From positions 2,237-66,236 of the forward strand of contig CAYJED010000005.1 in the NCBI GenBank assembly GCA_964369115.1: a stretch of 64,000 nt of DNA, given 5' to 3'. Below the pieces are notes generated by a model that made no database searches, was not told the DNA's origin, and saw only the letters and a program-made list of their open reading frames with translations. Origin of the DNA: an uncultured Candidatus Saccharibacteria bacterium (GTDB lineage Bacteria; Patescibacteriota; Minisyncoccia; Phycocordibacterales; UBA5272). A program made the position numbers and the translations under genes. Shown here piece by piece: positions 1 to 62,396 of the stretch (the stretch's first letter is position 1; the number at the start of each line of letters is the position of its first letter).

Positions 1-5
1 CCACA

Positions 6-2377: not shown

Positions 2378-2391
2378 TGCACCTTAAGTAA

Positions 2392-2910: not shown

Positions 2911-2957
2911 ATAATAGTCAGTATATCGAAACTCTTCAATATGTAAATGTGAAATGT

Positions 2958-4399: not shown

Positions 4400-4401
4400 G
4401 T

Positions 4402-4812: not shown

Positions 4813-4838
4813 AATAAAAGAAAGCCTACGGCGTTCGT

Positions 4839-20273: not shown

Positions 20274-21502
20274 GTCTTCATGATCTTAACGCTGCGCTTT
20301 TCATAGCTTATAAGACAATTGTAAAAGGTAACAAGTCAGTAACTATTCTTCTCATTACTGTTCTCAGCCTTGTTTTTTTTAACCTTATTTTTATAAAAGC
20401 ATTTCTTACTGGTTTTTCTGAAGGTGTTCTCCAATCGATGATAGACACCAGCACTGCGCATATTATTCTTTCACCAGAAGAGAAGCCTATTCAAAAAAGT
20501 TTTATACCAAATCAAGAAAAATTACGTAATCAAATTGAAACAATTCCAGGTGTCGTAGGCACACTAAGACATTATTCTGTCGGAGGGACCATTTCTTTTG
20601 ATAAAAATAAAACAGGATCAGTAAAGTATGTTTCTGCGCCAATTTTAGGTTTTAATCAGAAAGAAGAAAAGACAATTATGGGCGTACATAAAGTTATACG
20701 ATCAGGCACGTTTCCTGACATACTTAACGATGACGAGATTTTAATCGGTGCAAGTTTGGCTGGTGATTATGAAAACAGTGTTCAAGGTTCTGATTTGGGG
20801 GGCGTGCGCGCAGGTGACAAAGTTACTGTTCATTATGTGAACGGAGTTAATAAAATTTATACCGTACGAGGTATTTTTGAAGTAACAATAGGTTTTACAG
20901 GTAGTAGTGCTTTTATTTCTGACAAAGAAGCAGAGCGTATTCTTTCCGTATTTGATCAATCTTCAGAAATTTTGGTGCGTGTTGATCTTACAAAATATCC
21001 AATTGAATCGTATGTAAGACGTATACAAACTATTGCCCCACAACTAAAAATAGAGATATATAAAGACCGCCTTGCTGCAGTGGGTAGTCTTATTGATGCT
21101 TTTAATGTTATAGCGCTCATTATTGTTATTGTAAGCATTCTTGTTTCTGCTGCTACCATTTTTATAATGATTTATATTAATGCGCTTAGCAAGAAAAGAC
21201 ATATTGGAATTTTAAAAGCGATTGGTATTAAAAATGAAAGTATCGAGTTATCGTATATGTTGCAAGCTGTTTTTTTTTCACTTCTTGCCACAATAACCGG
21301 AAGCGTATTTTTTGTAGGAATTGTTCGTCCTTACATGGAAGCGAATCCAATCAAGATGCCGTATGGAGACGCTCTTCTTATTGTTGCTCCACAAGAAATT
21401 ATTATTTACGCAGTTTTACTTATTGGGGCTTCTTTATTTGCGGGAATGTTTTCTTCTCGAGTTATTGCAAGAAAGCCAATAGTTGAAAATATTTGGAAAT
21501 AG
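20270..21502 (+). CDS. ABC transporter permease (FtsX/MacB-type)
   Basis: N-terminal TM, a large periplasmic domain, and a C-terminal FtsX-like 3-TM bundle. Its start overlaps the upstream adaptor stop, indicating translational coupling. Confidence 0.55.
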   Translation: MSLHDLNAALFIAYKTIVKGNKSVTILLITVLSLVFFNLIFIKAFLTGFSEGVLQSMIDTSTAHIILSPEEKPIQKSFIPNQEKLRNQIETIPGVVGTLRHYSVGGTISFDKNKTGSVKYVSAPILGFNQKEEKTIMGVHKVIRSGTFPDILNDDEILIGASLAGDYENSVQGSDLGGVRAGDKVTVHYVNGVNKIYTVRGIFEVTIGFTGSSAFISDKEAERILSVFDQSSEILVRVDLTKYPIESYVRRIQTIAPQLKIEIYKDRLAAVGSLIDAFNVIALIIVIVSILVSAATIFIMIYINALSKKRHIGILKAIGIKNESIELSYMLQAVFFSLLATITGSVFFVGIVRPYMEANPIKMPYGDALLIVAPQEIIIYAVLLIGASLFAGMFSSRVIARKPIVENIWK

Positions 21503-22223
21503 TAATTATATGATTCATGTACGTAATCTAAAAAAAATATATGGAGAGGAGGGGGAGTCTCTGGTAAAAGCTCTTAACGATGTTTTTTTTACTATTAAAG
21601 ATGGAGAATTTATTGGACTTATGGGGAGAAGTGGTTCAGGTAAATCAACTCTGCTTCATCACTTAGGTCTTCTCGATACTCAAACTGAAGGAACTATTAT
21701 TATTGACGGTTTCGACACCACACTTCTTTCCGAGGATGAAAAAACACTTTTTCGACTTACTAAGCTTGGATATGTTTTTCAAGAGTATGGGCTTATTCCT
21801 GAATTTTCTGCATTAGAAAATGTATGCTTCCCTGCTCTTTCTCTTGGAAACATGGAGGCAACTTCTCGTGGCGAAGAATTACTTAGGTATGTTGGTTTAG
21901 GTGACAGAATACATTATTACCCTCATGAGCTTTCTGGTGGACAGCAGCAACGTGTGGCAATCGCCCGAGCTCTTATTAATGACCCTGCAATTATTTTTGC
22001 TGACGAACCTACTGCTAACCTAGATAGTCTTGGCACTGAAATGGTTCTCGCCCTCTTTAAAAAACTACATGAAGATTTTGGTAAAACCATTGTAATGGTA
22101 ACGCACGAAGAAAGTGATCGCCACTTGGTGGACAGGGTTCTTTTTATGAAAGACGGCTTTATTGTGAGTGATACACGCAAAGAAGATGTTGCAACAAGTA
22201 AGAGTAAAGTGTTGCGCTCTTAA
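21483..22223 (+). CDS. ABC transporter ATP-binding protein (MacB/LolD-like)
   Basis: Walker A GRSGSGKST, signature LSGGQQQRVAIARAL, Walker B IIFADEPT. Confidence 0.8.
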   Translation: MKIFGNSNYMIHVRNLKKIYGEEGESLVKALNDVFFTIKDGEFIGLMGRSGSGKSTLLHHLGLLDTQTEGTIIIDGFDTTLLSEDEKTLFRLTKLGYVFQEYGLIPEFSALENVCFPALSLGNMEATSRGEELLRYVGLGDRIHYYPHELSGGQQQRVAIARALINDPAIIFADEPTANLDSLGTEMVLALFKKLHEDFGKTIVMVTHEESDRHLVDRVLFMKDGFIVSDTRKEDVATSKSKVLRS

Positions 22224-22487: not shown

Positions 22488-25400
22488 ATGACAAATCCTC
22501 ATCAACAAAAAACCGTAAACGAAAAAGAACAAGAGACACTTCTCTTCTGGCAAGAAAATAACATTTTTGAGAAGTCTATAGTAAATCCAGGAGGTGAAAA
22601 ACCTTTAGGTGACTTTTCTTTTTATGATGGACCTCCTTTTGCGACAGGGCTTCCTCACTATGGTCATATTCTGGCGGGTACCATTAAAGATGCTGTGCCA
22701 CGCTATCAGACGATGAAGGGTAATAGTGTTCGTCGTGTATGGGGATGGGACTGTCACGGTCTTCCAATAGAAAACCTTATTGAGAAAAAATTAGGACTTG
22801 CAAGCAAAAAAGACATTGAAGATTTTGGTATTGATAAGTTTAATAAAGATGCGTATGAAAGCGTGCTTCAGTATGAAAAAGAGTGGCAGAGTATCGTGCC
22901 TCGACTAGGAAGATGGATAGATATGGATCATCCGTATAAGACAATGGATGCAACGTATACAGAAAGTATTTGGTGGGCTTGGAAAACGTTGTATAAAAAG
23001 AAACTTGCCTATGAGGGTAATAAAATGATGCATATCTGCCCACGTTGCGAAACACCGCTTGCACAGTCAGAAGTTGGTCTTGAATACCATGATGTTACCG
23101 ATCTCTCTGTGACGGCCAAATTTGAGCTCGTGGATGAGCCTGGTACATTTGTGCTTGCTTGGACAACTACCCCATGGACACTTCCTGGAAATACCGCGCT
23201 TGCAATTAATAGGGAGATTGTCTATGTGAAAGTGAAAGCTTTTAAAAGGCTTCCTCTTGCGGAAGCTGTTGACGTTAATAATAGCGGTTATGCTGGCAAT
23301 GGTGACCCTGAATTTTACATTCTTGCAAAAACTCAATTTGAGGAATATAAAAATCACTCAGAAAAAGATTTTGCTATTTTTAAAATAGAAGAAGAATTTA
23401 CAGGAGAAAAACTTGAGGGCAAAACATATCACCCTGTATTTTCATATTTCAAAGATACTCACACTGACTATAAAGAAAAGATTTGGAAAATTTGGCATGC
23501 AGATTTTATTACTGATGATACGGGAACTGGTATTGCACACGAGGCGCCAGCATTTGGTGCTGAGGATATGGAACTCGCAAAGCTTCACAATATCCCGGTG
23601 ATTAAACATGTAAAGATGGATGGAACATTTATTGACGCCGTCACCGATTTTGCTGGAAAGAAAGTAAAACAAAAAGATGACACTCAGTCAGCGGACATCG
23701 AAATCATTAAGTGGCTTGCTCATAACGGTAAACTTTTTGAGAAACATAAAATTATTCACTCATACCCACTTTGTTGGCGATGTAAAACGCCGTTACTCAA
23801 CTATGCGACAAGTAGTTGGTTTGTTGATGTTCCGTCTATAAAAGATACACTCATTTCAGAAAATAAAGCTATTGGATGGACACCGTCTCATACTCGTGAC
23901 GGGCGTTTCGGTAAATGGCTAGAAGGTGCTCGTGAATGGGCGGTTTCACGCACAAGATATTGGGGCGCACCACTTCCTGTTTGGAAAAATGCTTCAGGAA
24001 CTGAAGTGAAGGTTATTGGGTCACTTAAAGAACTTGTAGAGAATTCATTTTCACAACCTAAAAATACGTACTATGTGATGCGTCACGGTGAGGCTCACAG
24101 TAATGTAAAAGGGGTAATGGACAAAGGAACAGATGTTCATAATCATCTTACCGAAAAGGGGGTAACGCAGGTGGAAGTGTCAGCAAAGAATTTACATGAC
24201 AAGGGAATTGATATGATACTTGCTTCTCCTGTTGTGCGAGGAAGAGAAACGGCAGAGATTGTCAGTAAAGAACTTGGTCTTTCCGTTTCATTTGATGAGC
24301 GACTCAAGGAATATGATATGGGTATCTACGATGGTAAAACTCGTGAGGAATTCTTCGCTCAATTTGATAGTTCTTTTGTAGAATACGATGCTCGTCCAGA
24401 AGGAGGAGAGACACATAGAGAGATGATGCATCGTATGATGGCTCTTGTGCACGAGCTTGAGAATACCTACGAAGGTAAAACTATACTCCTTGTTACCCAC
24501 GGAGGACCTGCTCGTATGGTATTTGCTGGCGCATCACTTCTTACCGAAGAAGAAGTTGTGACAGATGATGTTCATAATGGAGCAACTCTTTATCCGACAA
24601 ATGCAGAAGTGCGCCATCTTCCACTTCATATTGTTCCTCGTGACGAAACTGGAGCTGTTAATCTCCATCGTCCGTACATTGATCAGGTGGTGCTTAAAGA
24701 TAACACAGGTGCACCGATGCATCGTATCGTGGACGTATTTGATTGTTGGTTTGAGTCAGGGTCTATGCCATTTGCTCAGCTGCACTATCCATTTGAAAAT
24801 AAAGAACTCTTCGATAAAAATTACCCAGCACAGTTTATTGCTGAAGGGCTTGATCAGACACGAGGGTGGTTTTATTCCCTCATTAATCTTGGTGTGGGTC
24901 TTTTTGGAAAAGCTCCATATGAGCATGTTATTGTAAACGGCCTTGTTCTCGCATCTTCTGGCGTAAAACTTTCTAAGAGTGAAAAAAATTACACTGACCC
25001 AATGCTTCTTGTAGAAAAGTATGGAGCAGACGCTATGCGCTATGCGCTCCTCTCCTCTCCTGTGGTAAAAGGGGAAAACCTTCAATTTGATGATGAACTT
25101 ATTGCTGACGTGTATAAGAAATGTATTTTACGTCTTGAAAATGTGCTTACCTTGTATCAGATGAATGCACCTGAAGCGGTTACTCCTTCAACAACATCTG
25201 ACAATGTTCTTGATCAATGGATGATCTCAAGAGTGCATGAGCTTATTACCGCTTCTACAGAAGGGTATGATGCATATCTTCTTGATGATGCAACTCGTGG
25301 AATTGGGGAAATTATTGATGATCTCTCTGTGTGGTATACACGCAGATCACGTGAACGTCTTAAAGGGGATATGGGCGAAGAAGAAAAAATAAAAGCATAC

Positions 25401-26003
25401 GAAACTCTTTCATATGTACTCCTTACACTTACTAAAGTAATGGCCCCAGTAATGCCATTTATTGCGGAACGAGTGTACAAGGACCTTAATGGTAAAAAAG
25501 AATCGGTACATCTTGAAAAGTGGCCAGAGATATCTTCTGTAGATACCGCTCTTCTTAAAAAAATGAAGAATACACGTAAAGTTGCCTCGCTTGCACTTAT
25601 GGAGCGCAACAAAGCAAAAATTGGTGTTCGTCAGCCTCTTACGTCTATAACAACAGGATTTATATTTAACGAACTATATACAGACATTATTGCAGATGAA
25701 GTAAACGTAAAACAAGTTATTGAAGATACAACTCTCGGAGAAGACGAAGTGAAGCTTGATACCGTCATTACTGAAGAACTTCAAAAAGAAGGAGATGTGC
25801 GTAACTTAATGCGTGCTATTCAAGATCTCCGTAAAGAGAAAGGGGTTGCGTACACAGATATAGTTCACGTTGTTTCTGATCATGAAATTATCCTTAATCC
25901 GCAAGTTGCTCCGGCGTGTAAAGTTATAGCTTCAGTTGAAAATACTGTAAACGGAACAGAAGTTGAACTTTCTTTTGGAAAAGTAATTGTTTCACTTAAG
26001 TAA
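22488..26003 (+). CDS. ileS: Isoleucine--tRNA ligase, type 2 (eukaryote-like), with an inserted histidine-phosphatase-like domain
   Basis: PFATGLPHYGHILAGTIKD (HIGH), WDCHGLPIE, editing CP1 domain, KLSKS, and FDCWFESGSMPFAQ. An insertion between ~aa 521 and 715 carries the histidine-phosphatase motifs MRHGEAHSN and LVTHGG. Confidence 0.9.
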   Translation: MTNPHQQKTVNEKEQETLLFWQENNIFEKSIVNPGGEKPLGDFSFYDGPPFATGLPHYGHILAGTIKDAVPRYQTMKGNSVRRVWGWDCHGLPIENLIEKKLGLASKKDIEDFGIDKFNKDAYESVLQYEKEWQSIVPRLGRWIDMDHPYKTMDATYTESIWWAWKTLYKKKLAYEGNKMMHICPRCETPLAQSEVGLEYHDVTDLSVTAKFELVDEPGTFVLAWTTTPWTLPGNTALAINREIVYVKVKAFKRLPLAEAVDVNNSGYAGNGDPEFYILAKTQFEEYKNHSEKDFAIFKIEEEFTGEKLEGKTYHPVFSYFKDTHTDYKEKIWKIWHADFITDDTGTGIAHEAPAFGAEDMELAKLHNIPVIKHVKMDGTFIDAVTDFAGKKVKQKDDTQSADIEIIKWLAHNGKLFEKHKIIHSYPLCWRCKTPLLNYATSSWFVDVPSIKDTLISENKAIGWTPSHTRDGRFGKWLEGAREWAVSRTRYWGAPLPVWKNASGTEVKVIGSLKELVENSFSQPKNTYYVMRHGEAHSNVKGVMDKGTDVHNHLTEKGVTQVEVSAKNLHDKGIDMILASPVVRGRETAEIVSKELGLSVSFDERLKEYDMGIYDGKTREEFFAQFDSSFVEYDARPEGGETHREMMHRMMALVHELENTYEGKTILLVTHGGPARMVFAGASLLTEEEVVTDDVHNGATLYPTNAEVRHLPLHIVPRDETGAVNLHRPYIDQVVLKDNTGAPMHRIVDVFDCWFESGSMPFAQLHYPFENKELFDKNYPAQFIAEGLDQTRGWFYSLINLGVGLFGKAPYEHVIVNGLVLASSGVKLSKSEKNYTDPMLLVEKYGADAMRYALLSSPVVKGENLQFDDELIADVYKKCILRLENVLTLYQMNAPEAVTPSTTSDNVLDQWMISRVHELITASTEGYDAYLLDDATRGIGEIIDDLSVWYTRRSRERLKGDMGEEEKIKAYETLSYVLLTLTKVMAPVMPFIAERVYKDLNGKKESVHLEKWPEISSVDTALLKKMKNTRKVASLALMERNKAKIGVRQPLTSITTGFIFNELYTDIIADEVNVKQVIEDTTLGEDEVKLDTVITEELQKEGDVRNLMRAIQDLRKEKGVAYTDIVHVVSDHEIILNPQVAPACKVIASVENTVNGTEVELSFGKVIVSLK

Positions 26004-46373: not shown

Positions 46374-46606
46374 GAGCAAACCTTCTCTTTCTTGTTTCAT
46401 CCCTTCAACTATTTGAGGGGATCTTTTTATTATGAGATTTTATTTTTATTTTGTCAAAATATAAAAAAGTTACATAGGCCTTGCCTGTGTAACTTTTTTA
46501 TTCACTTGTTTTTTATAAACAAAGTGCGCCTCCTTGGACCAGAAACCTATGGACCTGTTCGTGTACTAAGGCAAGATTTCTACAGTTAACCAAAAAATAC
46601 TCTGAG

Positions 46607-46679
46607 TGCGCCTACCTGGACTCGAACCAGGGACCAGTCGTGTATAAGACGACGGCTCTACCAACTGAGCTATAGGCGC
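46607..46679 (-). tRNA. tRNA with anticodon UAU (Ile; decodes AUA)
   Basis: The minus strand GCGCCTA-TA-GCTC-AGTTGGTA-GAGC-C-GTCGT-CTTATAC-ACGAC-TGGTC-CCTGG-TTCGAGT-CCAGG-TAGGCGC-A gives a perfect 7-bp acceptor, U8, a GG in the D-loop, a TTCGAGT T-loop, U33, anticodon T34A35T36, and A37. CCA is not encoded. Confidence 0.7.
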
Positions 46680-50574: not shown

Positions 50575-53500
50575 TTATCCTTCGTTACTTGTACTTACGT
50601 TAACTCGTTTTGTTTCTTTTGTTCCTGTTTGGCACGCTGCTGTAAATTCTGTTGTGTAACGAATTTGTCGTACTGTTTTCTTTCCAAGGGCTTTGTAGTC
50701 AGTAGGGTTATCTGTCGGACTGTGACCTGGAGCAAAATTACGAAGAGATGTGCGCAGATTTCTTTTTCCGTTCGGATCATTTCCGTCAGTTTCTTCTGCT
50801 GGACTGCTGAGGATATCATTGATTCCTTTCTCGTAGTCTTTTTGTTCTTGTGAACATGAATTATTTACACAGAGAACTTTTGCGCTAAGGGTACAAGTAT
50901 TATCGGGATACTGAATAGCCCACGTAAGTACTGTTTGACCTCCTTTTTCAATGGTTACAGGAGAAATGTTAAGTAATGCTTTTGGTGATTTTGGTACCAT
51001 ATCGAAATAAACTGACCATGGATCACTTTCGACATTTCCGTGCTTACAGATAATGGTATATGTCGCACTTGCATCAGGTGTAAAGTCTTGTGGCCCACTG
51101 TAGACAGTGTTATCTATTTCTAGTACACCGTTTTTTAGAATTTTCCATGCATTTGCACTAGAACAAATGAAGTTAATGTTTGGTGGAAATCCTGGGAATC
51201 CGTATTCTCCTGTTTTTACAACACCAGTAACTTCAGGGTCTACACATTTTCCTCCAACGCTGTCCCATTTTCCAGGTCCTGCAGTACAAGCAACTGATAC
51301 ATCTTCAGAATCAAGGGGTGGTTCGCCATTATTATAGAGGAATATTTTTACGGTAGATTTTGCAGCGGTGAGATTTATCGGCTGGTTAACTCCACTGTTA
51401 GCTGTATAGACGATGGTGCCATTTGGACTATTATGCGTAATTTGAGATGTTCCTATTGGATCTTGTGTAGACCATGTAGCACGCACCTGACAAGTGCTAT
51501 CTCCTGTTGCGATGCTGCATGACAGTGGTGCAACAGAAAGTGATCCCGTAGGTAGGGTACATGCAGGCTTAGTGACAGATCCGTTGTTACAGTTTCCACC
51601 TGCACATCCTCCATTACCACAAACTACACAACTACCAGCATCCATAACACGATCTGCTGGACAGATATCACATGTTGGTGGATTCGTAGCACCGTTAGCA
51701 CAGGATGGAGGGGTACATACAGGAGGGTTTGCTCCACCGTTATTACAACTTCCGTCTGTACATCCTCCATTTAGACACACTACACAACTACCAGCATCCA
51801 TAACACGATCTGCTGGACAGATATCACATGTTGGTGGATTCGTAGCACCGTTAGCACAAGCATTAGGCTCACAACTGTCTCCATCCCATGATGTACCATT
51901 TGCACAACTTGCTGTAGTGTTTGTTGTGTCAAGAATTGTTCCTCCAACAAGAACTCCAGCATTGTTTACACCTCCATACTGAACACGATAACACCCACCT
52001 GTGTAGCCACTAAACACAGAAGCACTTTGGTCTCCTGTAAGATATGAACCATAGATGCCATTACTACAGTCAGTGAGAATAACAGGGGTTATATTTGCAG
52101 AAGTCCATGTAAGAGTTGGATTACAAGAAGAATTACCAGAGGATACTGTACAAGAAAATGGTTCGTTAGTGAATGATGCTGTTGGTCCTGCATTAGGCGC
52201 GCAATTATCTCCATCCCACGATGTTCCGTTTGCACAGCTAGTTGTAATCACTTTAGTCGCAAGCTCTACGGTGTTGTTGTACAAATAGTAGGTGATTCCA
52301 CTTCCACTGTAAGGAACAGCTACACTGTAGTTATTTTCACTGTCGTCATTGATTTTAACATTAACATTTCCTGTTCTTGTTACAGAGCTTCCTCCAGCAT
52401 TTTGAGGGTAACTAACGCTCCATGATAGTGACACATTACAGGTGCTGTTTCCTGAACTGATAACACAAGAGTTAGCAGAAGAGGTGAGAGTTCCTGACAT
52501 AAGTCGACATCTGTTATCTGTGTGCACATGTCTTCCTGTGTTACATTGTCCAGTAACGTCAATAGTTTTAAGAGTTACCCCATTGTTTTTTAATGAATGT
52601 CTAGATGGTGAAAGGTAACCAAAAGCTGAAACGCTTTTTGTGTCCTCATGTTGTGGACTATAGATTACAGCACTGTCAGAATCTCGTACAATTTGTGTTG
52701 TTGCACTTTCTGGGTTTGTAACTTTCCAATACAAGGTGACAGCACAGTTGGTTGCGTCATCAGCAATGGTACACGTTGTACCACTAGGTGCTGTAAGAGT
52801 TCCAGTCATAGTGCCAGGACATGTAGGGTAGTTCGCATGTCCATTTTTACATGTTCCTGCACATTTCCATGCATTGTCTGCGCCAAATGCATCATAGTTT
52901 GTGTCAGTTGAAACATTACATCCCCATTTAGGAGCGGAACATGAAAGGCTTCCACATTTCCAATTCCAAGCAGCTGCTGTATCTGCTGCATCTGTGAATG
53001 TTCCACTAGAACACGCTACTCCTCCTGAAGGTTGTGCATCAGGATTTTGAATAGTTCCATTTCCTGTACCACATGAGTCAGCGGGTGCCGTTGTCGTAAA
53101 CGTCGCATCTGCTGAGAAGTAGTATGTTCCACCACTATCTCGTACAAATCCTCTGTAGTGGTATGTGGTATTTGCCAACATACTTCCACCGCGCGCATGA
53201 CTAAACACTCCTGTAGACACTCCTCCTGCATTAGTTGTTTCTGCCGAACAGTTAGTTAAAGGATCTACAACTGATCCCCAACAGGTACCACGTTCAGTTA
53301 TTGTTTTTGTTCCTGCTGATCTAAAGTTTGCTCCAAGTGTTGCTCCTGTTGAGGTGATGTTTGATGCAGTAGGGGTGTCGATGACGGGGTTTAAGGTACA
53401 TGCAGGCTTAATGGTAGAGCCGTTATTACAAACATGGTTTGTACATCCCGAACCTTGACAAGCTTCACAGGAGTCACCGTCCCATGCAGAGTTTGAAGCA

Positions 53501-56340
53501 CAGTCTGCTGTAACGTTAACTGTAGCAAGCTCTTTTGAATTGTTGTAAAGTCTGAAGATATGAGGTTTAGGGTATTGCGCACCTGGTATATCCAGTATAT
53601 AGCGAGCTTGAAGGGATTGACTGCCGTTATTGACAGAATTACTAGATGGCCCTCCGCCGTCACCTACAACTTGAGATACTCCACTTGTTGCATTTGTTGT
53701 TGTCCAAGTAAAGAGAGACCAACATGTGCTTGCTCCGTTTAATATAGTACAAGCTTCAGGAGAAGCTGAGAGAGTTCCTGACATGGCACTTGGTGCCGTT
53801 GTCGTAAACGTCGCATCTGCTGAGAAGTAGTATGTTCCACCACTATCTCGTACAAATCCTCTGTAGTGGTATGTGGTATTTGCCAACATACTTCCACCGC
53901 GCGCATGACTAAACACTCCTGTAGACACTCCTCCTGCATTAGTTGTTTCTGCCGAACAGTTAGTTAAAGGATCTACAACTGATCCCCAACAGGTACCACG
54001 TTCAGTTATTGTTTTTGTTCCTGCTGATCTAAAGTTTGCTCCAAGTGTTGCTCCTGTTGAGGTGATGTTTGATGCAGTAGGGGTGTCGATGACGGGGTTT
54101 AAGGTACATGCAGGCTTGATGGTAGAGCCGTTATTACAAACATGATTTGTACATCCTCCATTTTGACAAGCTTCACAGGAGTCACCGTCCCACACAGATC
54201 CTGAAGCACAGTCTGCGGTAACGTTAACTGTAGCAAGCTCTTTTGAATTGTTGTAAAGTCTGAAGGTGTGAGGGTTAGGGTATTGAGCGTTTGGTATATA
54301 GCGAGCTTGAAGGGATTGACTGCCGTTATTGACAGAATTACTAGATGGCCCTCCGCCGTCACCTACAACTTGAGATACTCCACTTGTTGCATTTGTTGTT
54401 GTCCAAGTAAAGAGAGACCAACATGTGCTTGCTCCGTTTAATATAGTACAAGCTTCAGGAGAAGCTGAGAGAGTTCCTGACATACCACCTGCCGCCGCTG
54501 TCGTAAACGTCGCATCTGCTGAGTAGTAGTATGTTCCACCACTGTCTCGTACAAACCCTCTATAGTGGTATGTGGTATTTGCCAACATACTTCCACGCGC
54601 ATGGCTAAATACTCCTGTTGCTGTACTTCCTTCTGCCACACAGTTACTTGAAGGATTTGCAAGTGATCCCCAACAGGTACCACGTTCAGTTATTGTTTTT
54701 GTTCCTGCTGATCTAAAGTTTGCTCCAAGTGTTGCTCCTGTTGAGGTGATGTTTGATGCAGTAGGGGTGTCGATGACGGGGTTTAAGGTACATGCAGGCT
54801 TGATGGTAGAGCCGTTATTACAAACATGATTTGTACATCCTCCATTTTGACAAGCTTCACAGGAGTCACCGTCCCACACAGATCCTGAAGCACAGTCTGC
54901 GGTAACGTTAACTGTAGCAAGCTCTTTTGAATTGTTGTAAAGTCTGAAGGTGTGAGGGTTAGGGTATTGAGCGTTTGGTATATAGCGAGCTTGAAGGGAT
55001 TGACTGCCGTTATTGACAGAATTACTAGATGGCCCTCCGCCGTCACCTACAACTTGAGATACTCCACTTGTTGCATTTGTTGTTGTCCAAGTAAAGAGAG
55101 ACCAACATGTGCTTGCTCCGTTTAATATAGTACAAGCTTCAGGAGAAGCTGAGAGAGTTCCTGACATACCACCTGCCGCCGCTGTCGTAAACGTCGCATC
55201 TGCTGAGTAGTAGTATGTTCCACCACTGTCTCGTACAAACCCTCTATAGTGGTATGTGGTATTTGCCAACATACTTCCACGCGCATGGCTAAATACTCCT
55301 GTTGCTGTACTTCCTTCTGCCACACAGTTACTTGAAGGATTTGCAAGTGATCCCCAACAGGTACCACGTTCAGTTATTGTTTTTGTTCCTGCTGATCTAA
55401 AGTTTGCTCCAAGTGTTGCTCCTGTTGAGGTGATGTTTGATGCAGTAGGGGTGTCGATGACGGGGTTTAAGGTACATGCAGGCTTAATGGTGGAGCCATT
55501 TGTACAACTCAGACTACCGTCAGGGTCACTGACACTTCCTCCTGTACCTGTACATCCGCTATTACCACATGCAACACACCCTGACCCTGCTGTAAAGTAT
55601 TTCCCGTCGAGACAGCGAGTTACTGTTTCTTGAATAGAAGAAGTCGCACTCTTTGTGCCATTTTTTACAACGTAGTCTGTATTTCTAACACACCCCACAT
55701 CTCCTTCTTGGGCATTTGTGTTGCTATTTCCTGATGCGCTTGTGAATGTCCCAAACACTTTCCATGCAGTATCAGTGTTCCATGAGTTGTTTGCACAAGA
55801 TCCGGTGAGTCTATATCTGTCTGAGTACGTTGCGCCATTTGTAGAGCTCCATGTTTTTGTATTTGCGGTTCCTGCTGGATAGCTGATGGTAGAGACGTTG
55901 GTACCATATGAGCCGGCGGTTATTTTAAGTGAGGCAGTTGGGTCTGCAGCGACACATGCACTACCGTTCCAAGAAGGCCTTCCTAGTGAAAGTGAACCAC
56001 CACAGTCTTCTACAGTAAGAGTATCCGATCCAGTTACTGAATCGCGTGTACACGTAAAACTAAAAGTATCAACTGTTTTAATACTAGCAAAAGTGGCACT
56101 ACCGTTTCCGGCTCGACGGCTTCCGTTCCACTGTACACCGTTTTGGTCTATAATATCATTTGGATTGCCGGTATACGTACTATTTGCATCACAGTCAGTT
56201 GCATTTAGAACAGACCAGTTGATGGTGGCATCTTTTCCTCTCTCTATCGTTTTAGCATAGGTGGTAGTTGTAGAAATAATGACTAAAAGTAAAGAAAAAA
56301 GAATACCGCGAATAATAAGTTTATAGCTATTGTATACCAT
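50575..56340 (-). CDS. Giant secreted/cell-surface protein (1921 aa), Cys/Thr/Ser/Gly/Asn-rich with internal tandem repeats
   Basis: N-terminal signal/anchor MVYNSYKLIIRGILFSLLLVIISTTTTYA. There are four ~228-aa repeats (NGSTIKPACTLNPVIDTPTASNITSTGATLGANFRSAGTKTITERGTCWGS...YHYRGFVRDSGGTYY...), a duplicated Cys-rich module (CANGATNPPTCDICPADRVMDAGSCVVC x2), and a conserved C-terminal ~130-aa domain shared with the 60711-62396 protein. Confidence 0.7.
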   Translation of the reverse strand: MVYNSYKLIIRGILFSLLLVIISTTTTYAKTIERGKDATINWSVLNATDCDANSTYTGNPNDIIDQNGVQWNGSRRAGNGSATFASIKTVDTFSFTCTRDSVTGSDTLTVEDCGGSLSLGRPSWNGSACVAADPTASLKITAGSYGTNVSTISYPAGTANTKTWSSTNGATYSDRYRLTGSCANNSWNTDTAWKVFGTFTSASGNSNTNAQEGDVGCVRNTDYVVKNGTKSATSSIQETVTRCLDGKYFTAGSGCVACGNSGCTGTGGSVSDPDGSLSCTNGSTIKPACTLNPVIDTPTASNITSTGATLGANFRSAGTKTITERGTCWGSLANPSSNCVAEGSTATGVFSHARGSMLANTTYHYRGFVRDSGGTYYYSADATFTTAAAGGMSGTLSASPEACTILNGASTCWSLFTWTTTNATSGVSQVVGDGGGPSSNSVNNGSQSLQARYIPNAQYPNPHTFRLYNNSKELATVNVTADCASGSVWDGDSCEACQNGGCTNHVCNNGSTIKPACTLNPVIDTPTASNITSTGATLGANFRSAGTKTITERGTCWGSLANPSSNCVAEGSTATGVFSHARGSMLANTTYHYRGFVRDSGGTYYYSADATFTTAAAGGMSGTLSASPEACTILNGASTCWSLFTWTTTNATSGVSQVVGDGGGPSSNSVNNGSQSLQARYIPNAQYPNPHTFRLYNNSKELATVNVTADCASGSVWDGDSCEACQNGGCTNHVCNNGSTIKPACTLNPVIDTPTASNITSTGATLGANFRSAGTKTITERGTCWGSVVDPLTNCSAETTNAGGVSTGVFSHARGGSMLANTTYHYRGFVRDSGGTYYFSADATFTTTAPSAMSGTLSASPEACTILNGASTCWSLFTWTTTNATSGVSQVVGDGGGPSSNSVNNGSQSLQARYILDIPGAQYPKPHIFRLYNNSKELATVNVTADCASNSAWDGDSCEACQGSGCTNHVCNNGSTIKPACTLNPVIDTPTASNITSTGATLGANFRSAGTKTITERGTCWGSVVDPLTNCSAETTNAGGVSTGVFSHARGGSMLANTTYHYRGFVRDSGGTYYFSADATFTTTAPADSCGTGNGTIQNPDAQPSGGVACSSGTFTDAADTAAAWNWKCGSLSCSAPKWGCNVSTDTNYDAFGADNAWKCAGTCKNGHANYPTCPGTMTGTLTAPSGTTCTIADDATNCAVTLYWKVTNPESATTQIVRDSDSAVIYSPQHEDTKSVSAFGYLSPSRHSLKNNGVTLKTIDVTGQCNTGRHVHTDNRCRLMSGTLTSSANSCVISSGNSTCNVSLSWSVSYPQNAGGSSVTRTGNVNVKINDDSENNYSVAVPYSGSGITYYLYNNTVELATKVITTSCANGTSWDGDNCAPNAGPTASFTNEPFSCTVSSGNSSCNPTLTWTSANITPVILTDCSNGIYGSYLTGDQSASVFSGYTGGCYRVQYGGVNNAGVLVGGTILDTTNTTASCANGTSWDGDSCEPNACANGATNPPTCDICPADRVMDAGSCVVCLNGGCTDGSCNNGGANPPVCTPPSCANGATNPPTCDICPADRVMDAGSCVVCGNGGCAGGNCNNGSVTKPACTLPTGSLSVAPLSCSIATGDSTCQVRATWSTQDPIGTSQITHNSPNGTIVYTANSGVNQPINLTAAKSTVKIFLYNNGEPPLDSEDVSVACTAGPGKWDSVGGKCVDPEVTGVVKTGEYGFPGFPPNINFICSSANAWKILKNGVLEIDNTVYSGPQDFTPDASATYTIICKHGNVESDPWSVYFDMVPKSPKALLNISPVTIEKGGQTVLTWAIQYPDNTCTLSAKVLCVNNSCSQEQKDYEKGINDILSSPAEETDGNDPNGKRNLRTSLRNFAPGHSPTDNPTDYKALGKKTVRQIRYTTEFTAACQTGTKETKRVNVSTSNEG
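52720..55494 (-). repeat. Four in-frame tandem repeats of ~684 nt inside the giant gene (two copies nucleotide-identical, two diverged)
   Basis: The ORF track shows identical translated sub-ORFs at a 684-nt offset (54099-54362 = 54783-55046, and 54438-54683 = 55122-55367). Diverged copies lie at 53391-53663 and 53739-53939. Confidence 0.8.
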
Positions 56341-56492: not shown

Positions 56493-56813
56493 ATGCGGAT
56501 TCATATTTTTAAATTAAAAAAAAATACTGAATTTCTTCTAAAGCAGTGGGGAGAAGAAGTTTCTTCTGATAGTAAAGAAGAAGCGATTCAAAGTCTTTTA
56601 GAAGAAAACTGCCTTGAAGAATCATTACGAATTTTTAAAATTAACAATGATATGTATCTTGTTGGTGTAATGGTAGCCTTAGATTCAAAAGGTCTTTTTG
56701 AACCAAATCAAAAAAGATCTATAAATAAAAAACACTTTTCTATTTTAAAAGAATGCATAGAAGAAGAAATTTCTCAAGATAAAATTTACAACGTTCGTGC
56801 AGATAAAAAATGA
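56493..56813 (+). CDS. Small protein upstream of the SagB-YcaO fusion (possible leader-peptide-binding/RRE-like accessory protein; hypothetical)
   Basis: 106-aa ORF whose stop overlaps the start of the downstream enzyme (ATGA), indicating translational coupling. No catalytic motif. The sequence is not Cys/Ser/Thr-rich, so it is not itself the precursor. Confidence 0.35.
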   Translation: MRIHIFKLKKNTEFLLKQWGEEVSSDSKEEAIQSLLEENCLEESLRIFKINNDMYLVGVMVALDSKGLFEPNQKRSINKKHFSILKECIEEEISQDKIYNVRADKK

Positions 56814-59041
56814 TAGAAAAAACTCCACTTAAAGAAAAAAAACCTATAATACATTCTTTTGGTAAATATGAGAGCGGTTTTTTTTCTTTTGTAAATTACT
56901 GGGGAGAGATCTCTTTTGAGGTAGATGAGATGATAGCAGAAAAAATAAACAGTATTTGCTTTAAATGTACCGGAACTAACTCTGTAGCAGAAATAATTAA
57001 ATCTTTTAACAAAGATGAAGAGGTGGAGTTGCTAGAGATCTTCGAGTTATTATTTGATAATAAGGTGATTTTTGATTCAAGAGAGTTTTATAAAATTTTT
57101 CATGAAGCATCAGAGTCTCCTTCTCGCTATACTTACAGTTTTTCTGACGATGAGATTAATTCTTTTAAAGCAAAATGCAGAAGTATAGTTCATCCAGAAG
57201 GGGAACTTATTTCTTTGAGAACTGTTTCAAATACTTTATTTACTGATCTTGTCTTAAATAGAAAATCTATTAGAAATTTTTCTGGAGCATCTATAACTGA
57301 TCAAGAGTTATCTGACCTTCTGATCTTATCATATTCAACAAATAGGCATAAGTCGACGCCGTCCGGTGGAGGGTTCTATCCTTTGCGTGTATATTTTTTG
57401 CTTCGTCTTAAAACTGAATCTTTAAGCCCGGGTCTGTATTTTTATAACCACGAAAAATCTTGTATCGTTAAAGTTTCAGAGCTTCCTCTTTTAAAAGATG
57501 AGTATTTTGAAGTTGTTTTAGGGGCACCTATGTATAACAGCAGTTCTGTAGTTATTTTTGTAGGATGTGATTTTAATTTAGTTACTAAAAAATATGCAAA
57601 TAGAGCATATAGGATGGCTCTTCTTGAAGCTGGTCATCTATGTCAAAATGTTTATCTATGCACTTCAAAAACTGAACTTGGTGTGGTTGAATACGGCGGG
57701 TGGAACGATGAAGTTCTCGAGTTTTTGCTAGATATAAAAGATAAAAATATTTTAATTCTTTCTACTTTATTTATCGGACATAAACAAGAAAATAGCTCTT
57801 CTGAGAACAAAACATTTGAAGATATTGAAGAAAAGCTAAGATCTAGTATTTGTCTTAAAGATTCTGGTATTGTTCGTTTTTTTGAGACGGAGTTATTTCA
57901 TTTTAATAATTACATTATGCCTGGATACGCCTCAGTTGCGAGATATGTTAGAGATAGAGATTTAGATAAAAGAAATCCAAAACTTTACTCAGCATTTGGT
58001 TTTGCTAAAACAATATCTGAATCAAGAGTTAAGGCTATTGCAGAAGCTTTCGAGAGATATGTCTCTGGCAGATATAGAGTCGATGAAATTGTTATACCAA
58101 ATAATGCTAAAGAAAAGTTTTTTAATATACTTGAAAATACACATCAAGATATTTTGTATATGAAAGAAAATAATTTATCAATTATTGACTATACAAAAAA
58201 ATGTTCTGTAGTATGGGCTTCGTACCTCCTTGATTCCAATAAAAATGATTATTGCTATGTTCCTGTCGATCATGTTTTTTATCCTATAAGTAAAAAAGAT
58301 GTTTTGCATGATATTTCTTTCCATTCTAATTCTACAGGGGTTGCAGCTCATACCCACTATGAAACAGCAGTTAAAAAAGCATTATTTGAATTAGTGGAAA
58401 GAGATGCTGTTGCGGTCATGTGGTTTTCTAAGATCTCACCAAAAAAAATAGATACCAAATCACTTCCTGAGGATCTTTTTCTTAGGGTTGAGGCTCTTCA
58501 AAAAATCGGCAGGGAGGTTGTTTTTTTTGACATAACAACAGACTCAGTTCCTGTTATTTTATGTTTATGTTATGGTGATTTTTTTCCTATGACAACCTCA
58601 GGGTGTTCTGCTCAAGAGGATCCTGTGGAGGCATGTAGAAAAGCTTTAGATGAAGCAGAATTTATTTTCAACTCCTGGAAAAGAGTTAAAAGAGAAAAGA
58701 AGGAATATTTTGAAGTTAAGTCAGCGACTGATCATGGTGATCTTTTTGCGTGGACAAACCTTAAAGAAGACCATAATTTAAAATGGCTTTTAGAAGGTCG
58801 TGTTATATCTATGCCTGCTGCCAAACAGGATGTTTATTCTAGTTTATTAAAAACACATAACCCCGTAGTTGTTCTCCTTTCCATGAAACATGAACCTCTT
58901 TTTGTTGTAAGAGTTTTGTCTAAAACATTGTATCCTTTTACTTTTGGATACGGTTCTGAGTTTTATGGACACCAAAGATTGAAGATGTTAGGATTAAAGT
59001 GGGGTCAGAATTACCCGTCTTTTCCCCATTTAATTGCATAA
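56810..59041 (+). CDS. Fused SagB-type (nitroreductase-fold, FMN-dependent) dehydrogenase / YcaO-domain cyclodehydratase, a TOMM/LAP-type azol(in)e-forming RiPP enzyme
   Basis: The N-terminal half has NRKSIRNF and TPSGGGFYPLRVY (SagB/McbC-type motifs RxSxRxF and PSAGxxYP). The C-terminal half has the YcaO motifs FGFAKTISESRVKAIAEAFERYVSG and SNSTGVAAHTHYETAVKKALFELVERDAV (ATP/Mg-binding ExxER...ERD). Confidence 0.7.
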   Translation: MIEKTPLKEKKPIIHSFGKYESGFFSFVNYWGEISFEVDEMIAEKINSICFKCTGTNSVAEIIKSFNKDEEVELLEIFELLFDNKVIFDSREFYKIFHEASESPSRYTYSFSDDEINSFKAKCRSIVHPEGELISLRTVSNTLFTDLVLNRKSIRNFSGASITDQELSDLLILSYSTNRHKSTPSGGGFYPLRVYFLLRLKTESLSPGLYFYNHEKSCIVKVSELPLLKDEYFEVVLGAPMYNSSSVVIFVGCDFNLVTKKYANRAYRMALLEAGHLCQNVYLCTSKTELGVVEYGGWNDEVLEFLLDIKDKNILILSTLFIGHKQENSSSENKTFEDIEEKLRSSICLKDSGIVRFFETELFHFNNYIMPGYASVARYVRDRDLDKRNPKLYSAFGFAKTISESRVKAIAEAFERYVSGRYRVDEIVIPNNAKEKFFNILENTHQDILYMKENNLSIIDYTKKCSVVWASYLLDSNKNDYCYVPVDHVFYPISKKDVLHDISFHSNSTGVAAHTHYETAVKKALFELVERDAVAVMWFSKISPKKIDTKSLPEDLFLRVEALQKIGREVVFFDITTDSVPVILCLCYGDFFPMTTSGCSAQEDPVEACRKALDEAEFIFNSWKRVKREKKEYFEVKSATDHGDLFAWTNLKEDHNLKWLLEGRVISMPAAKQDVYSSLLKTHNPVVVLLSMKHEPLFVVRVLSKTLYPFTFGYGSEFYGHQRLKMLGLKWGQNYPSFPHLIA

Positions 59042-59046
59042 AACAA

Positions 59047-59145
59047 ATGAGTACTTTAAAGCTTAAAGTTACATCAAAAAGTCACAAGCAAGTTGTAAGC
59101 TCAGCTAGTCTGTGCTTAACATCTACAAGTTCTTGTGACGATTAG
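59047..59145 (+). CDS. Candidate RiPP precursor peptide (32 aa) with Cys/Ser/Thr-rich core
   Basis: MSTLKLKVTSKSHKQVVSSASLCLTSTSSCDD. It starts 6 nt after the enzyme stop and is followed by an AT-rich hairpin (59166-59202). It is not in the ORF track because it is shorter than 60 aa. Confidence 0.45.
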   Translation: MSTLKLKVTSKSHKQVVSSASLCLTSTSSCDD

Positions 59146-59375
59146 TTTTTTGTTTTGATTTCATACTAAAAATACTTTATGTTTATCATAAAGTATTTTT
59201 AGTTATGTGTTTATTTTTTCTTAGTTTTAATTACTTTGAATTACGAAATACCAAAACTCCCCAAAACCAGTCTCACTTACAAAAGACCATCTACTTACAG
59301 AGCTGGTCTTCCTTAGCTTACTCTAAGTAGAGCTTTATGCACAGAAAAGATACACAGGGGAAATAAGACTATAGT

Positions 59376-59425: not shown

Positions 59426-60472
59426 TTACCGATTGGTAAACACCATCACGAGCACAATCAGTTCGAATTTTTCGGCATTCCCGGTATAGAGCACAGACTC
59501 AACACCAGTAGTAGAAAGCATGCGAAGCACGTGACGGCTAAACCTGTCCACGTATACGTAGTCGCCATTTGTCGTTTGGGCTGAGGTGTACCATGTCGGC
59601 TTATCAGGAGGCACGCGAAGATATCCGTCCTGAAGCAGGACGTAGGTCACGCCAGCTGGTGCTTCTGGGAGATCCTTCAGTTCCATGGTCATCGGGTCAA
59701 GGAAAATGTCATTGTAGCGGATTTTCCCTTCACCGGTTGGGGCTGCACAGGAGTGTGGAATGGTGCCGTCAGGCTGTGGCTGCGTCGCGGGAGCGCAGCT
59801 CGCCACTGTAGCATATTTTGTCTTGTTCTTGGCCAACACCTTGGTACCATCAGGCATGATCTTCGCAGGGAATCCGTTGTCGGTCGGATTATACGTCAAG
59901 ATGAGGTCAGTGTAGACGATTTTTTCTTGAGCCTTCGTCGTGAACGTGAGCGTTGCACTCACGGCGGCAGAAGTCCCTCCCGGGCCACTGCCTTGCACGT
60001 TCGTGGTCGACACTTGGCAGACGGTCGAGAACGGCATGGTGCCGGTGATCGTCACTGCAAAACGTGCGGTCGAGTTGGCGGTGTCAAGCGTCATGATCGT
60101 CGTGCTTGCGACGTCCGCACCTCCGCAGGTGGTGCGGAAAGTACCCGTTGCCGAGTCCATCTGACCACCACCGTTACGGAAGTTGAGGTGTGCGGCGAAG
60201 TTCGTGACGTCCACACCGGTTGCACCGTTATCGGGTGCGGTCGATGCGAGCGTCAGGCTCGGAGGGGCGGGTGGCGGGTTCACGCAGACGCCATTCTGAA
60301 GCACCTGAGGTGCCACGCAAGTGGGCGGAGTGGTGGAGCCACCACCACCACCCCCGCCACCACAGGCGACCAAGCTGGCGATGAGGCCAAGCATCACCAC
60401 ACAGGTGATGACGAAGCGCGCGAAGCGCGCCTTCTCGTCTCCACCAAAGGTGAAGATTTTCATGTTGTTCAT
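59426..60472 (-). CDS. Lipoprotein of unknown function on a high-GC (~60%) island (probable horizontal acquisition)
   Basis: Start likely MNNMKIF, preceded by aaaGGAAGcaccATG. Signal peptide with lipobox LVAC followed by a GGGGGGGGSTTPP linker. The GC shift is abrupt at both ends (~59430 and ~60480). A terminator lies at 59376-59408. Confidence 0.5.
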   Translation of the reverse strand: MNNMKIFTFGGDEKARFARFVITCVVMLGLIASLVACGGGGGGGGSTTPPTCVAPQVLQNGVCVNPPPAPPSLTLASTAPDNGATGVDVTNFAAHLNFRNGGGQMDSATGTFRTTCGGADVASTTIMTLDTANSTARFAVTITGTMPFSTVCQVSTTNVQGSGPGGTSAAVSATLTFTTKAQEKIVYTDLILTYNPTDNGFPAKIMPDGTKVLAKNKTKYATVASCAPATQPQPDGTIPHSCAAPTGEGKIRYNDIFLDPMTMELKDLPEAPAGVTYVLLQDGYLRVPPDKPTWYTSAQTTNGDYVYVDRFSRHVLRMLSTTGVESVLYTGNAEKFELIVLVMVFTNR

Positions 60473-60710
60473 GGTGCTTCCTTTCTGCCCGAAGGCAAAG
60501 ACACACAAAAGGTTTTCAAACCTTCTGTTTGGCGTGTTCAAAAATACAAAGAAATGAGCCTTTTTCATATCTGCTTTAGTCTAGTATTGCATAGACTTCG
60601 GCAGGTATGATAAGTATCTCTCCACATATTACACTACACCTATTTTAAAAACTTGTCAAGTATCCGCAATGTTAACAATTTTTTGTGTACATACAAGCAG
60701 AGAACATTTT

Positions 60711-62396
60711 TTATAGTTCACTACTATCTTTTACCACCTGAACACGTCGTGTTTCTTTGGTGATCCCATCACAGGTAAGAGTAAATTCCATTGAATGTTC
60801 AACATTGAACGTCTTTTTCCCAAGTGCTCGCCATAGCGGTTCTTCATACCCTGGTGCAAAGTACTTAAGCGCATCTTGAATAGGGCGAGTAGTATTTGGA
60901 TCGTTTATATCAGTTGAACTTGAAGTTAAAATAGTATTTACATCGTCCTCAAAAGATGTCTGATCAGGTGTACAGATGTTATTAGTGCAAACTGCTTTTG
61001 CTGTTATTTGACAATCCTCGGTAGGATATTCAATGTCCCACGAAACAACAGTATCTTCATCTTTAGTAACACTTTTCGGATAGACACTTAGGGTTATGGT
61101 AGGTGGTGGTGGAGGTGGCAAATCATAGCGCACAGTGAAAGGCACAGGGTTTCTATATGATCCGTTTCGAGCATAAATGACGAAGTTTGCTGTCTGATTA
61201 ATTTCTACATTTGTGACACCAGAGTACGTACCTGTTGCTACAAGATTTCCTGATGGTAGAGGTGAGGTATAGATTTCATAAGCATCGGATCCTGTTAATT
61301 CAAACGTAATAACTCCTGGTGCTAAATACCAGTTACCTGATGAATATCCGTAACTTATTTGAGGGTTGACACACGTTGATGAGATGGTGTCCCATCCACC
61401 TGAAGAACATGAAGTAGTTACCGTAACTGGACCTGAAAGAAGTTGTCCTGCGTCATAGAGGTACATATCTGTAGCAGGAAATTCTCCAGTTAGAGTAAAA
61501 TTTTGTGCGGTACCAAAATATCCCGTAAACACAGTTGTGTTATCTGGATTATTACGGGTAACTGCTGGTGTGCCTATAGGGTAGCCTGTAGACCATGTGG
61601 CGCTGTACTGACAAGAGCTTTCTCCAACAGGGATAACACAGCTAAGTGGTGTAACATCAAGTGTACCAATTGCTGTACGTACCATAAATCCTTGCCAGAA
61701 ACTGCAGTTATTGTCTTCTGCTGTAGATGATGGCTTTTCAGTAATGAGACCAAGATCACCTGAAGATGATTTGTCTGCACAGGTTCGTACGCTATAAAAC
61801 CCATTTTCAGAAAAAAGGTGGGTGTAGGTGACGACCCTCGCGCCTGTTGCTGAAAGTGAGGCAGTGGACGTTGCTGGCATATCTGTAATCACAGCATCTT
61901 TTTCTATTTGAAAAAAAACATTAAAAGATGAGCCGGTTGTATCTGTGCCTATATTTCGTATAACACTTTCAAAAGTTGTCGGTATACCAGTACGAAGACT
62001 GCCAGAAAACTGATCATCTGTTGTAACGGAGTCTGCTGTGAGATCGGGGTCACGTGTTACGGTGATGGAAGCAAATAGAGGAAATGTAACATTACCTGAC
62101 TTATCTCCATTCTCATAACAAGTGAGACGGTATGTAACGGTGCCTGAATCTAGTTCGCTAAGATTTGTAAACGAAGAGGGAGGGATAAATTCTGCCCAAC
62201 TGTTTGTCCAATCACCTGTTGTTTCTTGTTTGTCGATAACACAGATACCGTACCCTGTATCATCTACGGTAACGTTATAGGTTTCTCCTAGTGTTACTGA
62301 TGATGTTGATGTAGTTATTCCTGCAAACGAAGTAGCACCGTTAGATAATAATAAAAACAGAGAAACTAAAACTATTTTTTTAGAAAAAGTATACAT
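60711..62396 (-). CDS. Secreted surface protein, paralogous to the giant protein (shared internal module and conserved C-terminal domain)
   Basis: Signal peptide MYTFSKKIVLVSLFLLLSNGATSFA. LDVTPLSCVIPVGESSCQYSATWSTGYPIGT is close to the giant protein's LSVAPLSCSIATGDSTCQVRATWSTQDPIGT. The C-terminal ~130 aa (VVSWDIEYPTEDCQITAKAVCTNNICTPDQ...FAPGYEEPLWRALGKKT...EFTLTCDGITKETRRVQV) align with the giant protein's C-terminus. Confidence 0.6.
   Translation of the reverse strand: MYTFSKKIVLVSLFLLLSNGATSFAGITTSTSSVTLGETYNVTVDDTGYGICVIDKQETTGDWTNSWAEFIPPSSFTNLSELDSGTVTYRLTCYENGDKSGNVTFPLFASITVTRDPDLTADSVTTDDQFSGSLRTGIPTTFESVIRNIGTDTTGSSFNVFFQIEKDAVITDMPATSTASLSATGARVVTYTHLFSENGFYSVRTCADKSSSGDLGLITEKPSSTAEDNNCSFWQGFMVRTAIGTLDVTPLSCVIPVGESSCQYSATWSTGYPIGTPAVTRNNPDNTTVFTGYFGTAQNFTLTGEFPATDMYLYDAGQLLSGPVTVTTSCSSGGWDTISSTCVNPQISYGYSSGNWYLAPGVITFELTGSDAYEIYTSPLPSGNLVATGTYSGVTNVEINQTANFVIYARNGSYRNPVPFTVRYDLPPPPPPTITLSVYPKSVTKDEDTVVSWDIEYPTEDCQITAKAVCTNNICTPDQTSFEDDVNTILTSSSTDINDPNTTRPIQDALKYFAPGYEEPLWRALGKKTFNVEHSMEFTLTCDGITKETRRVQVVKDSSEL

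Follow-up and report, generated by a model that had tools for sequence, protein, structure and literature searches.

A three-gene unit at 56493–59203 on the forward strand of a 64,000-nucleotide stretch of DNA from an uncultured Candidatus Saccharibacteria bacterium (contig CAYJED010000005.1; the window) is probably a minimal operon for a linear azol(in)e-containing peptide (LAP), a peptide made by the ribosome and modified after its translation (RiPP), of the thiazole/oxazole-modified microcin (TOMM) type. A single polypeptide would carry out both thiazoline formation, guided by a RiPP recognition element (RRE), and oxidation. On the map of open reading frames (ORFs) and in the sequence, the unit consists of a 106-residue DUF6176 protein as the first gene (56493–56813, +), a 743-residue fusion enzyme (56810–59041, +, stop codon TAA) and a 32-codon precursor gene (59047–59145, +), which encodes MSTLKLKVTSKSHKQVVSSASLCLTSTSSCDD and whose ATG lies 5 nucleotides past the TAA of the enzyme. 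The operon is closed by an intrinsic-terminator-like hairpin (59165–59203, +) with a 17 bp AT-rich stem and a T-rich tail (ΔG −19.9 kcal/mol, z = −5.3 versus shuffles). The first two ORFs overlap by 4 nucleotides (ATGA) and are translationally coupled. An earlier reading made from the letters alone (the sequence-only reading) had proposed a compact TOMM/LAP-type operon with a SagB–YcaO fusion and an unannotated Cys/Ser/Thr-rich precursor. This proposal is supported by the hidden Markov model (HMM) matches and the precursor conservation described below, and the ATGA overlap, the 32-codon ORF and the AT-rich hairpin were all confirmed. The unit thus has the YcaO cyclodehydratase (D) and the SagB/McbC dehydrogenase (B), the latter with its Lys–Tyr pair, of a LAP system, together with an adjacent precursor composed of a leader and a Cys/Ser/Thr-rich core.

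The 743-residue protein is an RRE–SagB–YcaO three-domain fusion. The SagB/McbC-type flavin mononucleotide (FMN) dehydrogenase domain (residues ~136–325; 57215–57784, +) was assigned from Pfam, NCBIfam and the Lys–Tyr pair, and the YcaO cyclodehydratase domain (residues ~350–743; 57857–59041, +) from Pfam PF02624 and a conserved tail (...YPSFPHLIA). Pfam YcaO PF02624 matched residues 397–642 (E = 4.9e-32, 112 bits against a cut-off of 25.7) and Pfam Nitroreductase PF00881 matched residues 149–316 (E = 4.2e-12); the NCBIfam SagB model TIGR03605 scored 90.3 bits, above its cut-off of 78.4. The family signatures that the sequence-only reading had recognized are therefore matched by significant HMM hits. 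Profile matches of the YcaO domain were obtained to MusD, TruD, LynD and MJ1094.

Residue invariance in the enzyme was assessed in an alignment of 21 family members. In the dehydrogenase domain R151, R155 and the K261–Y262 pair are invariant, and the last of these aligns exactly with K201–Y202 of McbC, the catalytic pair for azoline oxidation. The invariant residues of the YcaO domain are E412, E415, R416, S508, G510, E527, E530, R531 and D532. At the extreme C-terminus P739–H740 is invariant within a tail of the form P-x-x-P-H-x-x-[A/P]. The C-termini of McbD and of LynD insert into the YcaO active site, as described in the same paper as the McbC pair, and the tail motif of the fusion resembles that of these azoline-forming enzymes.

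For the first ~130 residues of the enzyme no sequence-level assignment was obtained, and Pfam PqqD did not match at E ≤ 1. A family profile searched against the PDB sequences gave sub-threshold matches only (MusD N-terminus, E = 0.3; PbtF, E = 2.3). An AlphaFold model of the N-terminus, calculated with the family alignment as input, is confident (pLDDT 85.8); in it a sheet leads into three helices. In a fold comparison this model scored 7.3 against BmdC, 6.9 against CyaGox/ThcOx, 6.1 against LynD and 5.4 against PqqD, in agreement with Foldseek. The three-stranded sheet and three-helix winged helix thus match known leader-binding domains; no PqqD/RRE sequence profile matched, so that recognition of the domain rests on its fold. 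The family profile also aligns to BmdC over the RRE-like and nitroreductase parts together (positions 51–314, E = 7.5e-24). Since the N-terminus folds as an RRE (residues 1–90; 56810–57079, +; predicted leader-binding domain), the protein is described as RRE–SagB–YcaO, and on the basis of the model residues ~1–90 are a clear candidate for leader recognition. The presence of an RRE in the fusion implies a peptide substrate with a leader.

The 32-codon ORF would offer such a substrate. Conservation was used to divide it into a predicted leader (residues 1–21, MSTLKLKVTSKSHKQVVSSAS; 59047–59109, +) and a core (residues 22–32, LCLTSTSSCDD, plus the stop codon; 59110–59145, +). Loci of homologous enzymes (30–57% identity) were fetched and their flanks were scanned for short ORFs; 80 loci were kept from the genome scan. 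About two thirds of the non-redundant fusion loci that were fetched have a short ORF beside the fusion gene and on the same strand; it mostly follows the gene immediately, and in three of the loci (L015, L024 and L025) it comes immediately before it. The expectation that the small ORF would recur in homologous loci was thus borne out for most of the enzymes examined; the remaining third or so of the fetched loci have no obvious adjacent precursor. The adjoining ORFs carry Cys within a Gly/Ser/Thr-rich tail, and many share a leader motif, including all 17 that were aligned, distant family members among them: h-[KRT]-[VI]-x-[VIS]-[KRS]-[PSE]-[YHF], where h is hydrophobic, with LKVTSKSH as the version in the window. 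Alternating motifs of this kind are what RREs bind as an added β-strand. Cys23 is nearly invariant across the same 17 precursors. Homologous precursors include MNISDIKVTAKSHEQVVSAANLCLTSTSSCDD (L001), MSNVTIEQTSHLQEMEAVDLCTDSSSSCDD (L002), MSKTKTVKVAVKPYEGSIHAYMSKCGSCSDKR (L006), MKKSKLKIKIRIKPYEGTTLSSIYACRSGGACPGGGTCGK (L005) and ...RIVIRVETKPYTKLEIESGAPHSANGCHSSSGHSGSS (L021), as well as microcin-B17-like Gly/Cys repeat peptides (L098–L100); cores related to that of the window are DLCTDSSSSCDD (L002) and DLCTTSTSS... (L093).

The peptide gene was compared codon by codon with that of L001, the locus of the 57% identical enzyme. Twenty-one codons differ, 12 of them synonymously and nine not. 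The core LCLTSTSSCDD is identical in the two peptides although six of its 11 codons differ, all six being synonymous changes, whereas the 100 nucleotides 3′ of the ORF are identical at 52 of 100 positions in a global alignment. With the core changes all synonymous and the downstream DNA diverged, the precursor clearly bears the mark of a translated gene with a constrained core, and its codons identify the 32-codon ORF as a real gene under purifying selection. The same operon, nearly identical, is present in at least four metagenome samples (ERR15976508, ERR4405440 and SRR13208889 are among the samples carrying it), and the peptide ORF is uncalled by gene callers in all four of the metagenome operon copies shown. 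These copies (L089–L092) are so close to the window that they add no evolutionary signal.

A different precursor design occurs beside a member of the same enzyme family in L104, where three tandem precursor-like ORFs (4522–4980) lie downstream of a 706-residue fusion enzyme. Two are free-standing (24 residues each) and the third lies within the C-terminus of a longer ORF of 58 residues; they share M(A/T/S)EDILTIT.D..D.T.ME....C with a C-terminal Cys.

The following course of events is proposed. The N-terminal RRE would bind the short β-strand leader motif of the precursor (approximately residues 6–13, LKVTSKSH). The C-terminal YcaO domain, using ATP, would cyclodehydrate Cys23 and Cys30 of the core LCLTSTSSCDD to azolines, possibly together with neighbouring Ser/Thr residues. 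The central FMN dehydrogenase would then oxidize the azolines to azoles (thiazoles at Cys) by means of its Lys261–Tyr262 dyad. The RRE–dehydrogenase part would hold the place of an RRE–E1-like module, so that a separate C or F partner would not be needed. Leader removal and export of the product would presumably follow.

The 106-residue protein encoded by the first gene belongs to DUF6176 (Pfam PF19673, E = 7.5e-9, 36 bits against a gathering cut-off of 27), and its close homologues all carry PF19673. A profile search collected 15 DUF6176 relatives, in which E37, E38, C40, E43, N78, H81 and Y99 are invariant, a set more suggestive of an active or ligand site. The AlphaFold2 model (pLDDT 93) has the order βααββαβ, and Foldseek matched it, with TM-scores of ~0.5 and weak E values, to proteins of the ferredoxin-like dimeric α+β-barrel (DABB/ABM) fold, namely rhamnose mutarotase, olivetolic acid cyclase, HapK and ABM monooxygenases. 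DUF6176 was therefore rejected as an RRE, the fold of the model being DABB/ABM ferredoxin-like rather than winged-helix. The sequence-only reading had left leader recognition to either the 106-residue protein or the fusion; the fusion, with its RRE fold at residues ~1–90, was retained and the 106-residue protein, a DUF6176 member of DABB/ABM fold, was discarded. In all fetched loci of the 'CDD' clade (L001, L002/L003 and L089–L093) the gene right before the fusion gene encodes DUF6176, and in the scanned loci DUF6176 was seen in no place other than upstream of a fusion with a precursor ending in ...C-x7-C-D-D. The protein is rated a clade-specific accessory protein for tailoring or handling, not a leader binder. 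In other fusion clades a DUF2268 'predicted Zn-dependent protease' gene comes right after the precursor, and DUF2268 is a plausible leader peptidase there.

Further genes accompany DUF6176 at some of these loci. In L001, the closest homologous operon, a class I S-adenosylmethionine (SAM) methyltransferase gene (97–684) lies directly upstream of it; this gene has no counterpart in the window. In L093 the region ahead of the DUF6176–fusion–precursor unit (1–5000) holds genes for GNAT and M20-peptidase proteins, a radical-SAM/SPASM enzyme accompanied by a 57-residue ORF, a Peptidase_MA_2 protein and a HATPase_c fragment, which may represent a larger or second RiPP cluster. A truncated 73-residue DUF6176 remnant on the 154 kb contig of L095 (5001–5222) has no fusion enzyme beside it and probably represents a copy in which the operon has decayed.

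Several observations weigh against a LAP operon with a self-contained synthetase. The YcaO part scores 117 bits with the NCBIfam SagD model TIGR03604, well under the cut-off of 219, and MJ1094, an archaeal YcaO that forms thioamides, was matched about as well as the azoline-forming MusD, TruD and LynD. An E1-like (C protein) or Ocin-ThiF-like (F protein) partner is missing: the RRE (1–90), SagB (~136–325) and YcaO (~350–743) domains leave no room for one within the fusion, and, as the sequence-only reading had noted, none is visible beside it, ThiF-type Pfam families being absent from the operon genes and from the called neighbours of the homologous loci. Characterized azoline-forming YcaOs normally require an E1-like or Ocin-ThiF partner. 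The available text of the 2015 TOMM survey describes this partner as dispensable in a few systems. RREs fused to dehydrogenases are regarded as possibly vestigial (RRE-Finder). The peptide ORF has no obvious Shine–Dalgarno sequence before it, and the operon in the window contains no protease, transporter or immunity gene. The core, which had been expected to be hypervariable, proved to be strongly conserved within the clade. A conserved core is atypical for bacteriocin-like RiPPs.

Some of these points would be accommodated by a RiPP operon that uses other YcaO amide-activation chemistry (for example backbone thioamidation or amidine formation), with the nitroreductase-fold domain catalysing a different oxidation, for instance to dehydro-amino acids, and azoles not being formed. 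The YcaO domain, besides falling under the SagD cut-off and matching MJ1094, also matches the McrA-thioamidation model; the partner protein is missing; and a nitroreductase-fold RiPP enzyme with non-azole chemistry was recently described in the literature. This alternative, the main one, is nevertheless considered unlikely. The dehydrogenase scores above the cut-off of the SagB-specific model and has retained the azoline-oxidizing Lys–Tyr dyad of McbC, a Cys is almost invariant among the aligned cores, the tail at the C-terminus has a motif like that of azoline-forming enzymes, and neither the operon nor the called neighbours in the homologous loci include a TfuA gene.

The other two alternatives concern the leader and the substrate. 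That DUF6176 rather than the fusion enzyme recognizes the leader is suggested by its translational coupling to the enzyme gene and its strict co-occurrence with the 'CDD' precursor clade, but it is judged very unlikely: the confident model is DABB/ABM ferredoxin-like without a winged helix, the invariant residues have the look of an active or ligand site, the fusion has a well conserved RRE of its own, and most fusion clades lack DUF6176 yet have precursors bearing the same leader motif. Some stand-alone YcaOs modify proteins encoded elsewhere, and the 32-codon ORF, being very short, unannotated and without a clear ribosome-binding site, could be a chance or non-functional frame beside an enzyme with another such substrate; the third or so of the fetched fusion loci that lack an obvious adjacent precursor point the same way. 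This is the least probable of the alternatives and is given hardly any weight, since the position and strand of the ORF, its leader motif and its tail with Cys persist down to ~30% enzyme identity, the core has only synonymous codon changes (six of six) next to diverged flanking noncoding DNA, and the RRE implies a leader-bearing peptide substrate. A LAP operon with a self-contained azole-forming enzyme is therefore preferred.

Compared with McbBCD (the microcin B17 synthetase of E. coli) and classical TOMM/LAP BCD systems, the operon has the same pairing of a YcaO protein with a SagB/McbC FMN dehydrogenase carrying the same Lys–Tyr dyad, an RRE predicted to take up the leader as a β-strand, and a short precursor whose core is rich in Cys, Ser and Gly; the resemblance extends to the microcin-B17-like Gly-Cys repeat cores of L098–L100 within the fusion family. 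It differs from McbBCD in that B and D form one polypeptide, the E1-like C protein (McbB) is absent from the operon, the only RRE is on the dehydrogenase side and export and immunity genes are lacking. The cyanobactin heterocyclases LynD, TruD and PatD and also MusD (RRE–E1-like–YcaO) share the domain outline of the fusion, as stated for the LynD type, but the middle module in the window is a SagB-type FMN dehydrogenase instead of an E1-like domain; with this module in the E1-like place, one enzyme is predicted both to cyclodehydrate and to oxidize. ThcOx/CyaGox (cyanobactin oxidase) and BmdC (an oxidase of non-ribosomal peptide synthesis) are likewise RRE–dehydrogenase proteins, but they are stand-alone or protease-fused and their RREs are thought to be vestigial, whereas the module in the window is fused to YcaO, and the system has no RRE other than the one on this module. 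In the partner-independent YcaOs of bottromycin and trifolitoxin biosynthesis the YcaO acts without an E1-like C protein, as is predicted here; these systems have no fused RRE–dehydrogenase and their precursors are non-canonical, and bottromycin chemistry includes amidine formation.

An exhaustive HMMER search of 1.84 billion representative proteins returned 246 members of the fusion family at E ≤ 1e-30, and almost all of the top 150 matches are 700–750 residues long and align from end to end. The RRE–SagB–YcaO fusion is thus a sizeable, unnamed family. Named relatives come from metagenome-assembled genomes (MAGs) of Patescibacteria, or candidate phyla radiation (CPR), bacteria (Taylorbacteria, Uhrbacteria, Woesebacteria, Magasanikiibacteriota and assemblies labelled 'Saccharibacteria'); Burkholderiaceae and Comamonadaceae MAGs also contain distant fusions, and split B+D gene pairs are present in other CPR and in Bdellovibrionales-labelled MAGs. 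Among ultrasmall bacteria labelled CPR/Patescibacteria, relatives are common. Biosynthetic clusters had been presumed rare in CPR genomes, a view that does not hold given the size of the fusion family and the 110 LAP clusters in 93 further CPR genomes given in the available text of Sharrar et al. (2020, mBio, PMC7298704). The clusters described there, from Microgenomates and Parcubacteria, resemble the present one in combining YcaO and nitroreductase with a short precursor close by, and differ in having separate genes, a peptidase and an 84-residue precursor; the same text does not describe the three-domain fusion, its RRE, the precursor families of 29–65 residues or the DUF6176 and DUF2268 partners. 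The available text of the 2015 TOMM survey describes C–D fusions and partner-less D proteins and mentions no B–D fusion. No precedent for a dehydrogenase–YcaO (B–D) fusion was found in the full-text literature searched, the coverage of which is incomplete, so that an earlier mention is possible. The locus represents a new architecture of an already known class of RiPP; as a system it is not new in kind.

Both genes flanking the operon are on the opposite strand, which bounds it: upstream lies the gene of a 1921-residue repeat protein and downstream that of a 380-residue protein (59426–60568, −), which has a terminator-like hairpin of its own (59409–59382). The G+C content is 31–33% in the operon, 44–49% in its flanks and ~40% in the whole window. 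The sequence-only reading had placed the locus in an accessory island with foreign DNA; the compositional mosaic, a low-G+C operon beside higher-G+C genes, suggests an accessory region, and the foreign origin found no counterpart in a viral-contig scan, which gave no phage or mobile-element link to the operon. The gene content of the window is that of chromosomal housekeeping (ArgRS, MetRS, IleRS, FtsH, RecG and SecD). A scan of the 64 kb found neither another copy of the precursor nor a DUF2268-type protease nor an additional YcaO, and no dedicated exporter was seen near the operon within the window. HlyD-family and FtsX-family genes at 18681–22223 (+), followed by a 246-residue ORF, may encode a MacAB-like efflux system. 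Located ~35 kb from the operon, this pump was the one exporter candidate seen in the window; it has no link to the peptide.

The divergent neighbour (50575–56340, −) encodes the 1921-residue protein, a secreted repeat protein. The gene contains near-identical repeats of ~684 nucleotides, with identical spurious small ORFs at 54029, 54713 and 55397, and a 156-nucleotide tandem repeat at 51600–51910. Directly downstream of the operon, the genes at 59426–60568 (−) and 60711–62396 (−) have 44–49% G+C and encode signal-peptide-like proteins without a Pfam family; the C-terminal ~60 residues of the 1921-residue protein resemble those of the 561-residue protein encoded at 60711–62396.

Elsewhere in the window, a class I tRNA synthetase of 1171 residues (22488–26003, +), which appears to be IleRS, carries a histidine-phosphatase domain (His_Phos_1, PF00300, E = 2.8e-36) inserted at residues 529–689 between the halves of its catalytic domain, an unusual insertion. 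A tRNA-Ile gene with anticodon TAT (UAU) lies at 46606–46679 (−). Most bacteria use a lysidine-modified CAU tRNA instead of tRNA-Ile UAU.

The conservation of the cores within clades argues against a fast-evolving bacteriocin and leaves room, speculatively, for a product with a signalling, metal-binding or cofactor-like function. A broader proposal would make the fusion a self-sufficient azole synthetase in which a functional dehydrogenase-borne RRE replaces the E1-like/Ocin-ThiF partner, in a Patescibacteria-wide family that makes clade-conserved small peptides with a physiological role (metal binding, cofactor-like or episymbiotic signal) rather than variable antibiotics, with DUF6176 as a new DABB-fold tailoring enzyme. 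In this full form the proposal is unlikely. Its products may include thiazole-x7-thiazole-Asp-Asp here and cores of the form C-x6-C-x6-C-G-K elsewhere.

Should the proposed mechanism be correct, leader recognition, ATP-dependent cyclodehydration and oxidation would be combined in one protein of 743 residues, the smallest known azole synthetase and a compact tool for the installation of thiazoles in peptides. The E1-like partner of azoline-forming YcaOs, considered nearly universal, would be replaceable by an RRE–dehydrogenase module, and dehydrogenase-fused RREs, regarded as vestigial, would acquire a clear role. The genome-reduced Patescibacteria would then possess a large unnamed enzyme family together with matching families of precursors, the clade-conserved cores of which give a hint of a role outside warfare by classical bacteriocins.

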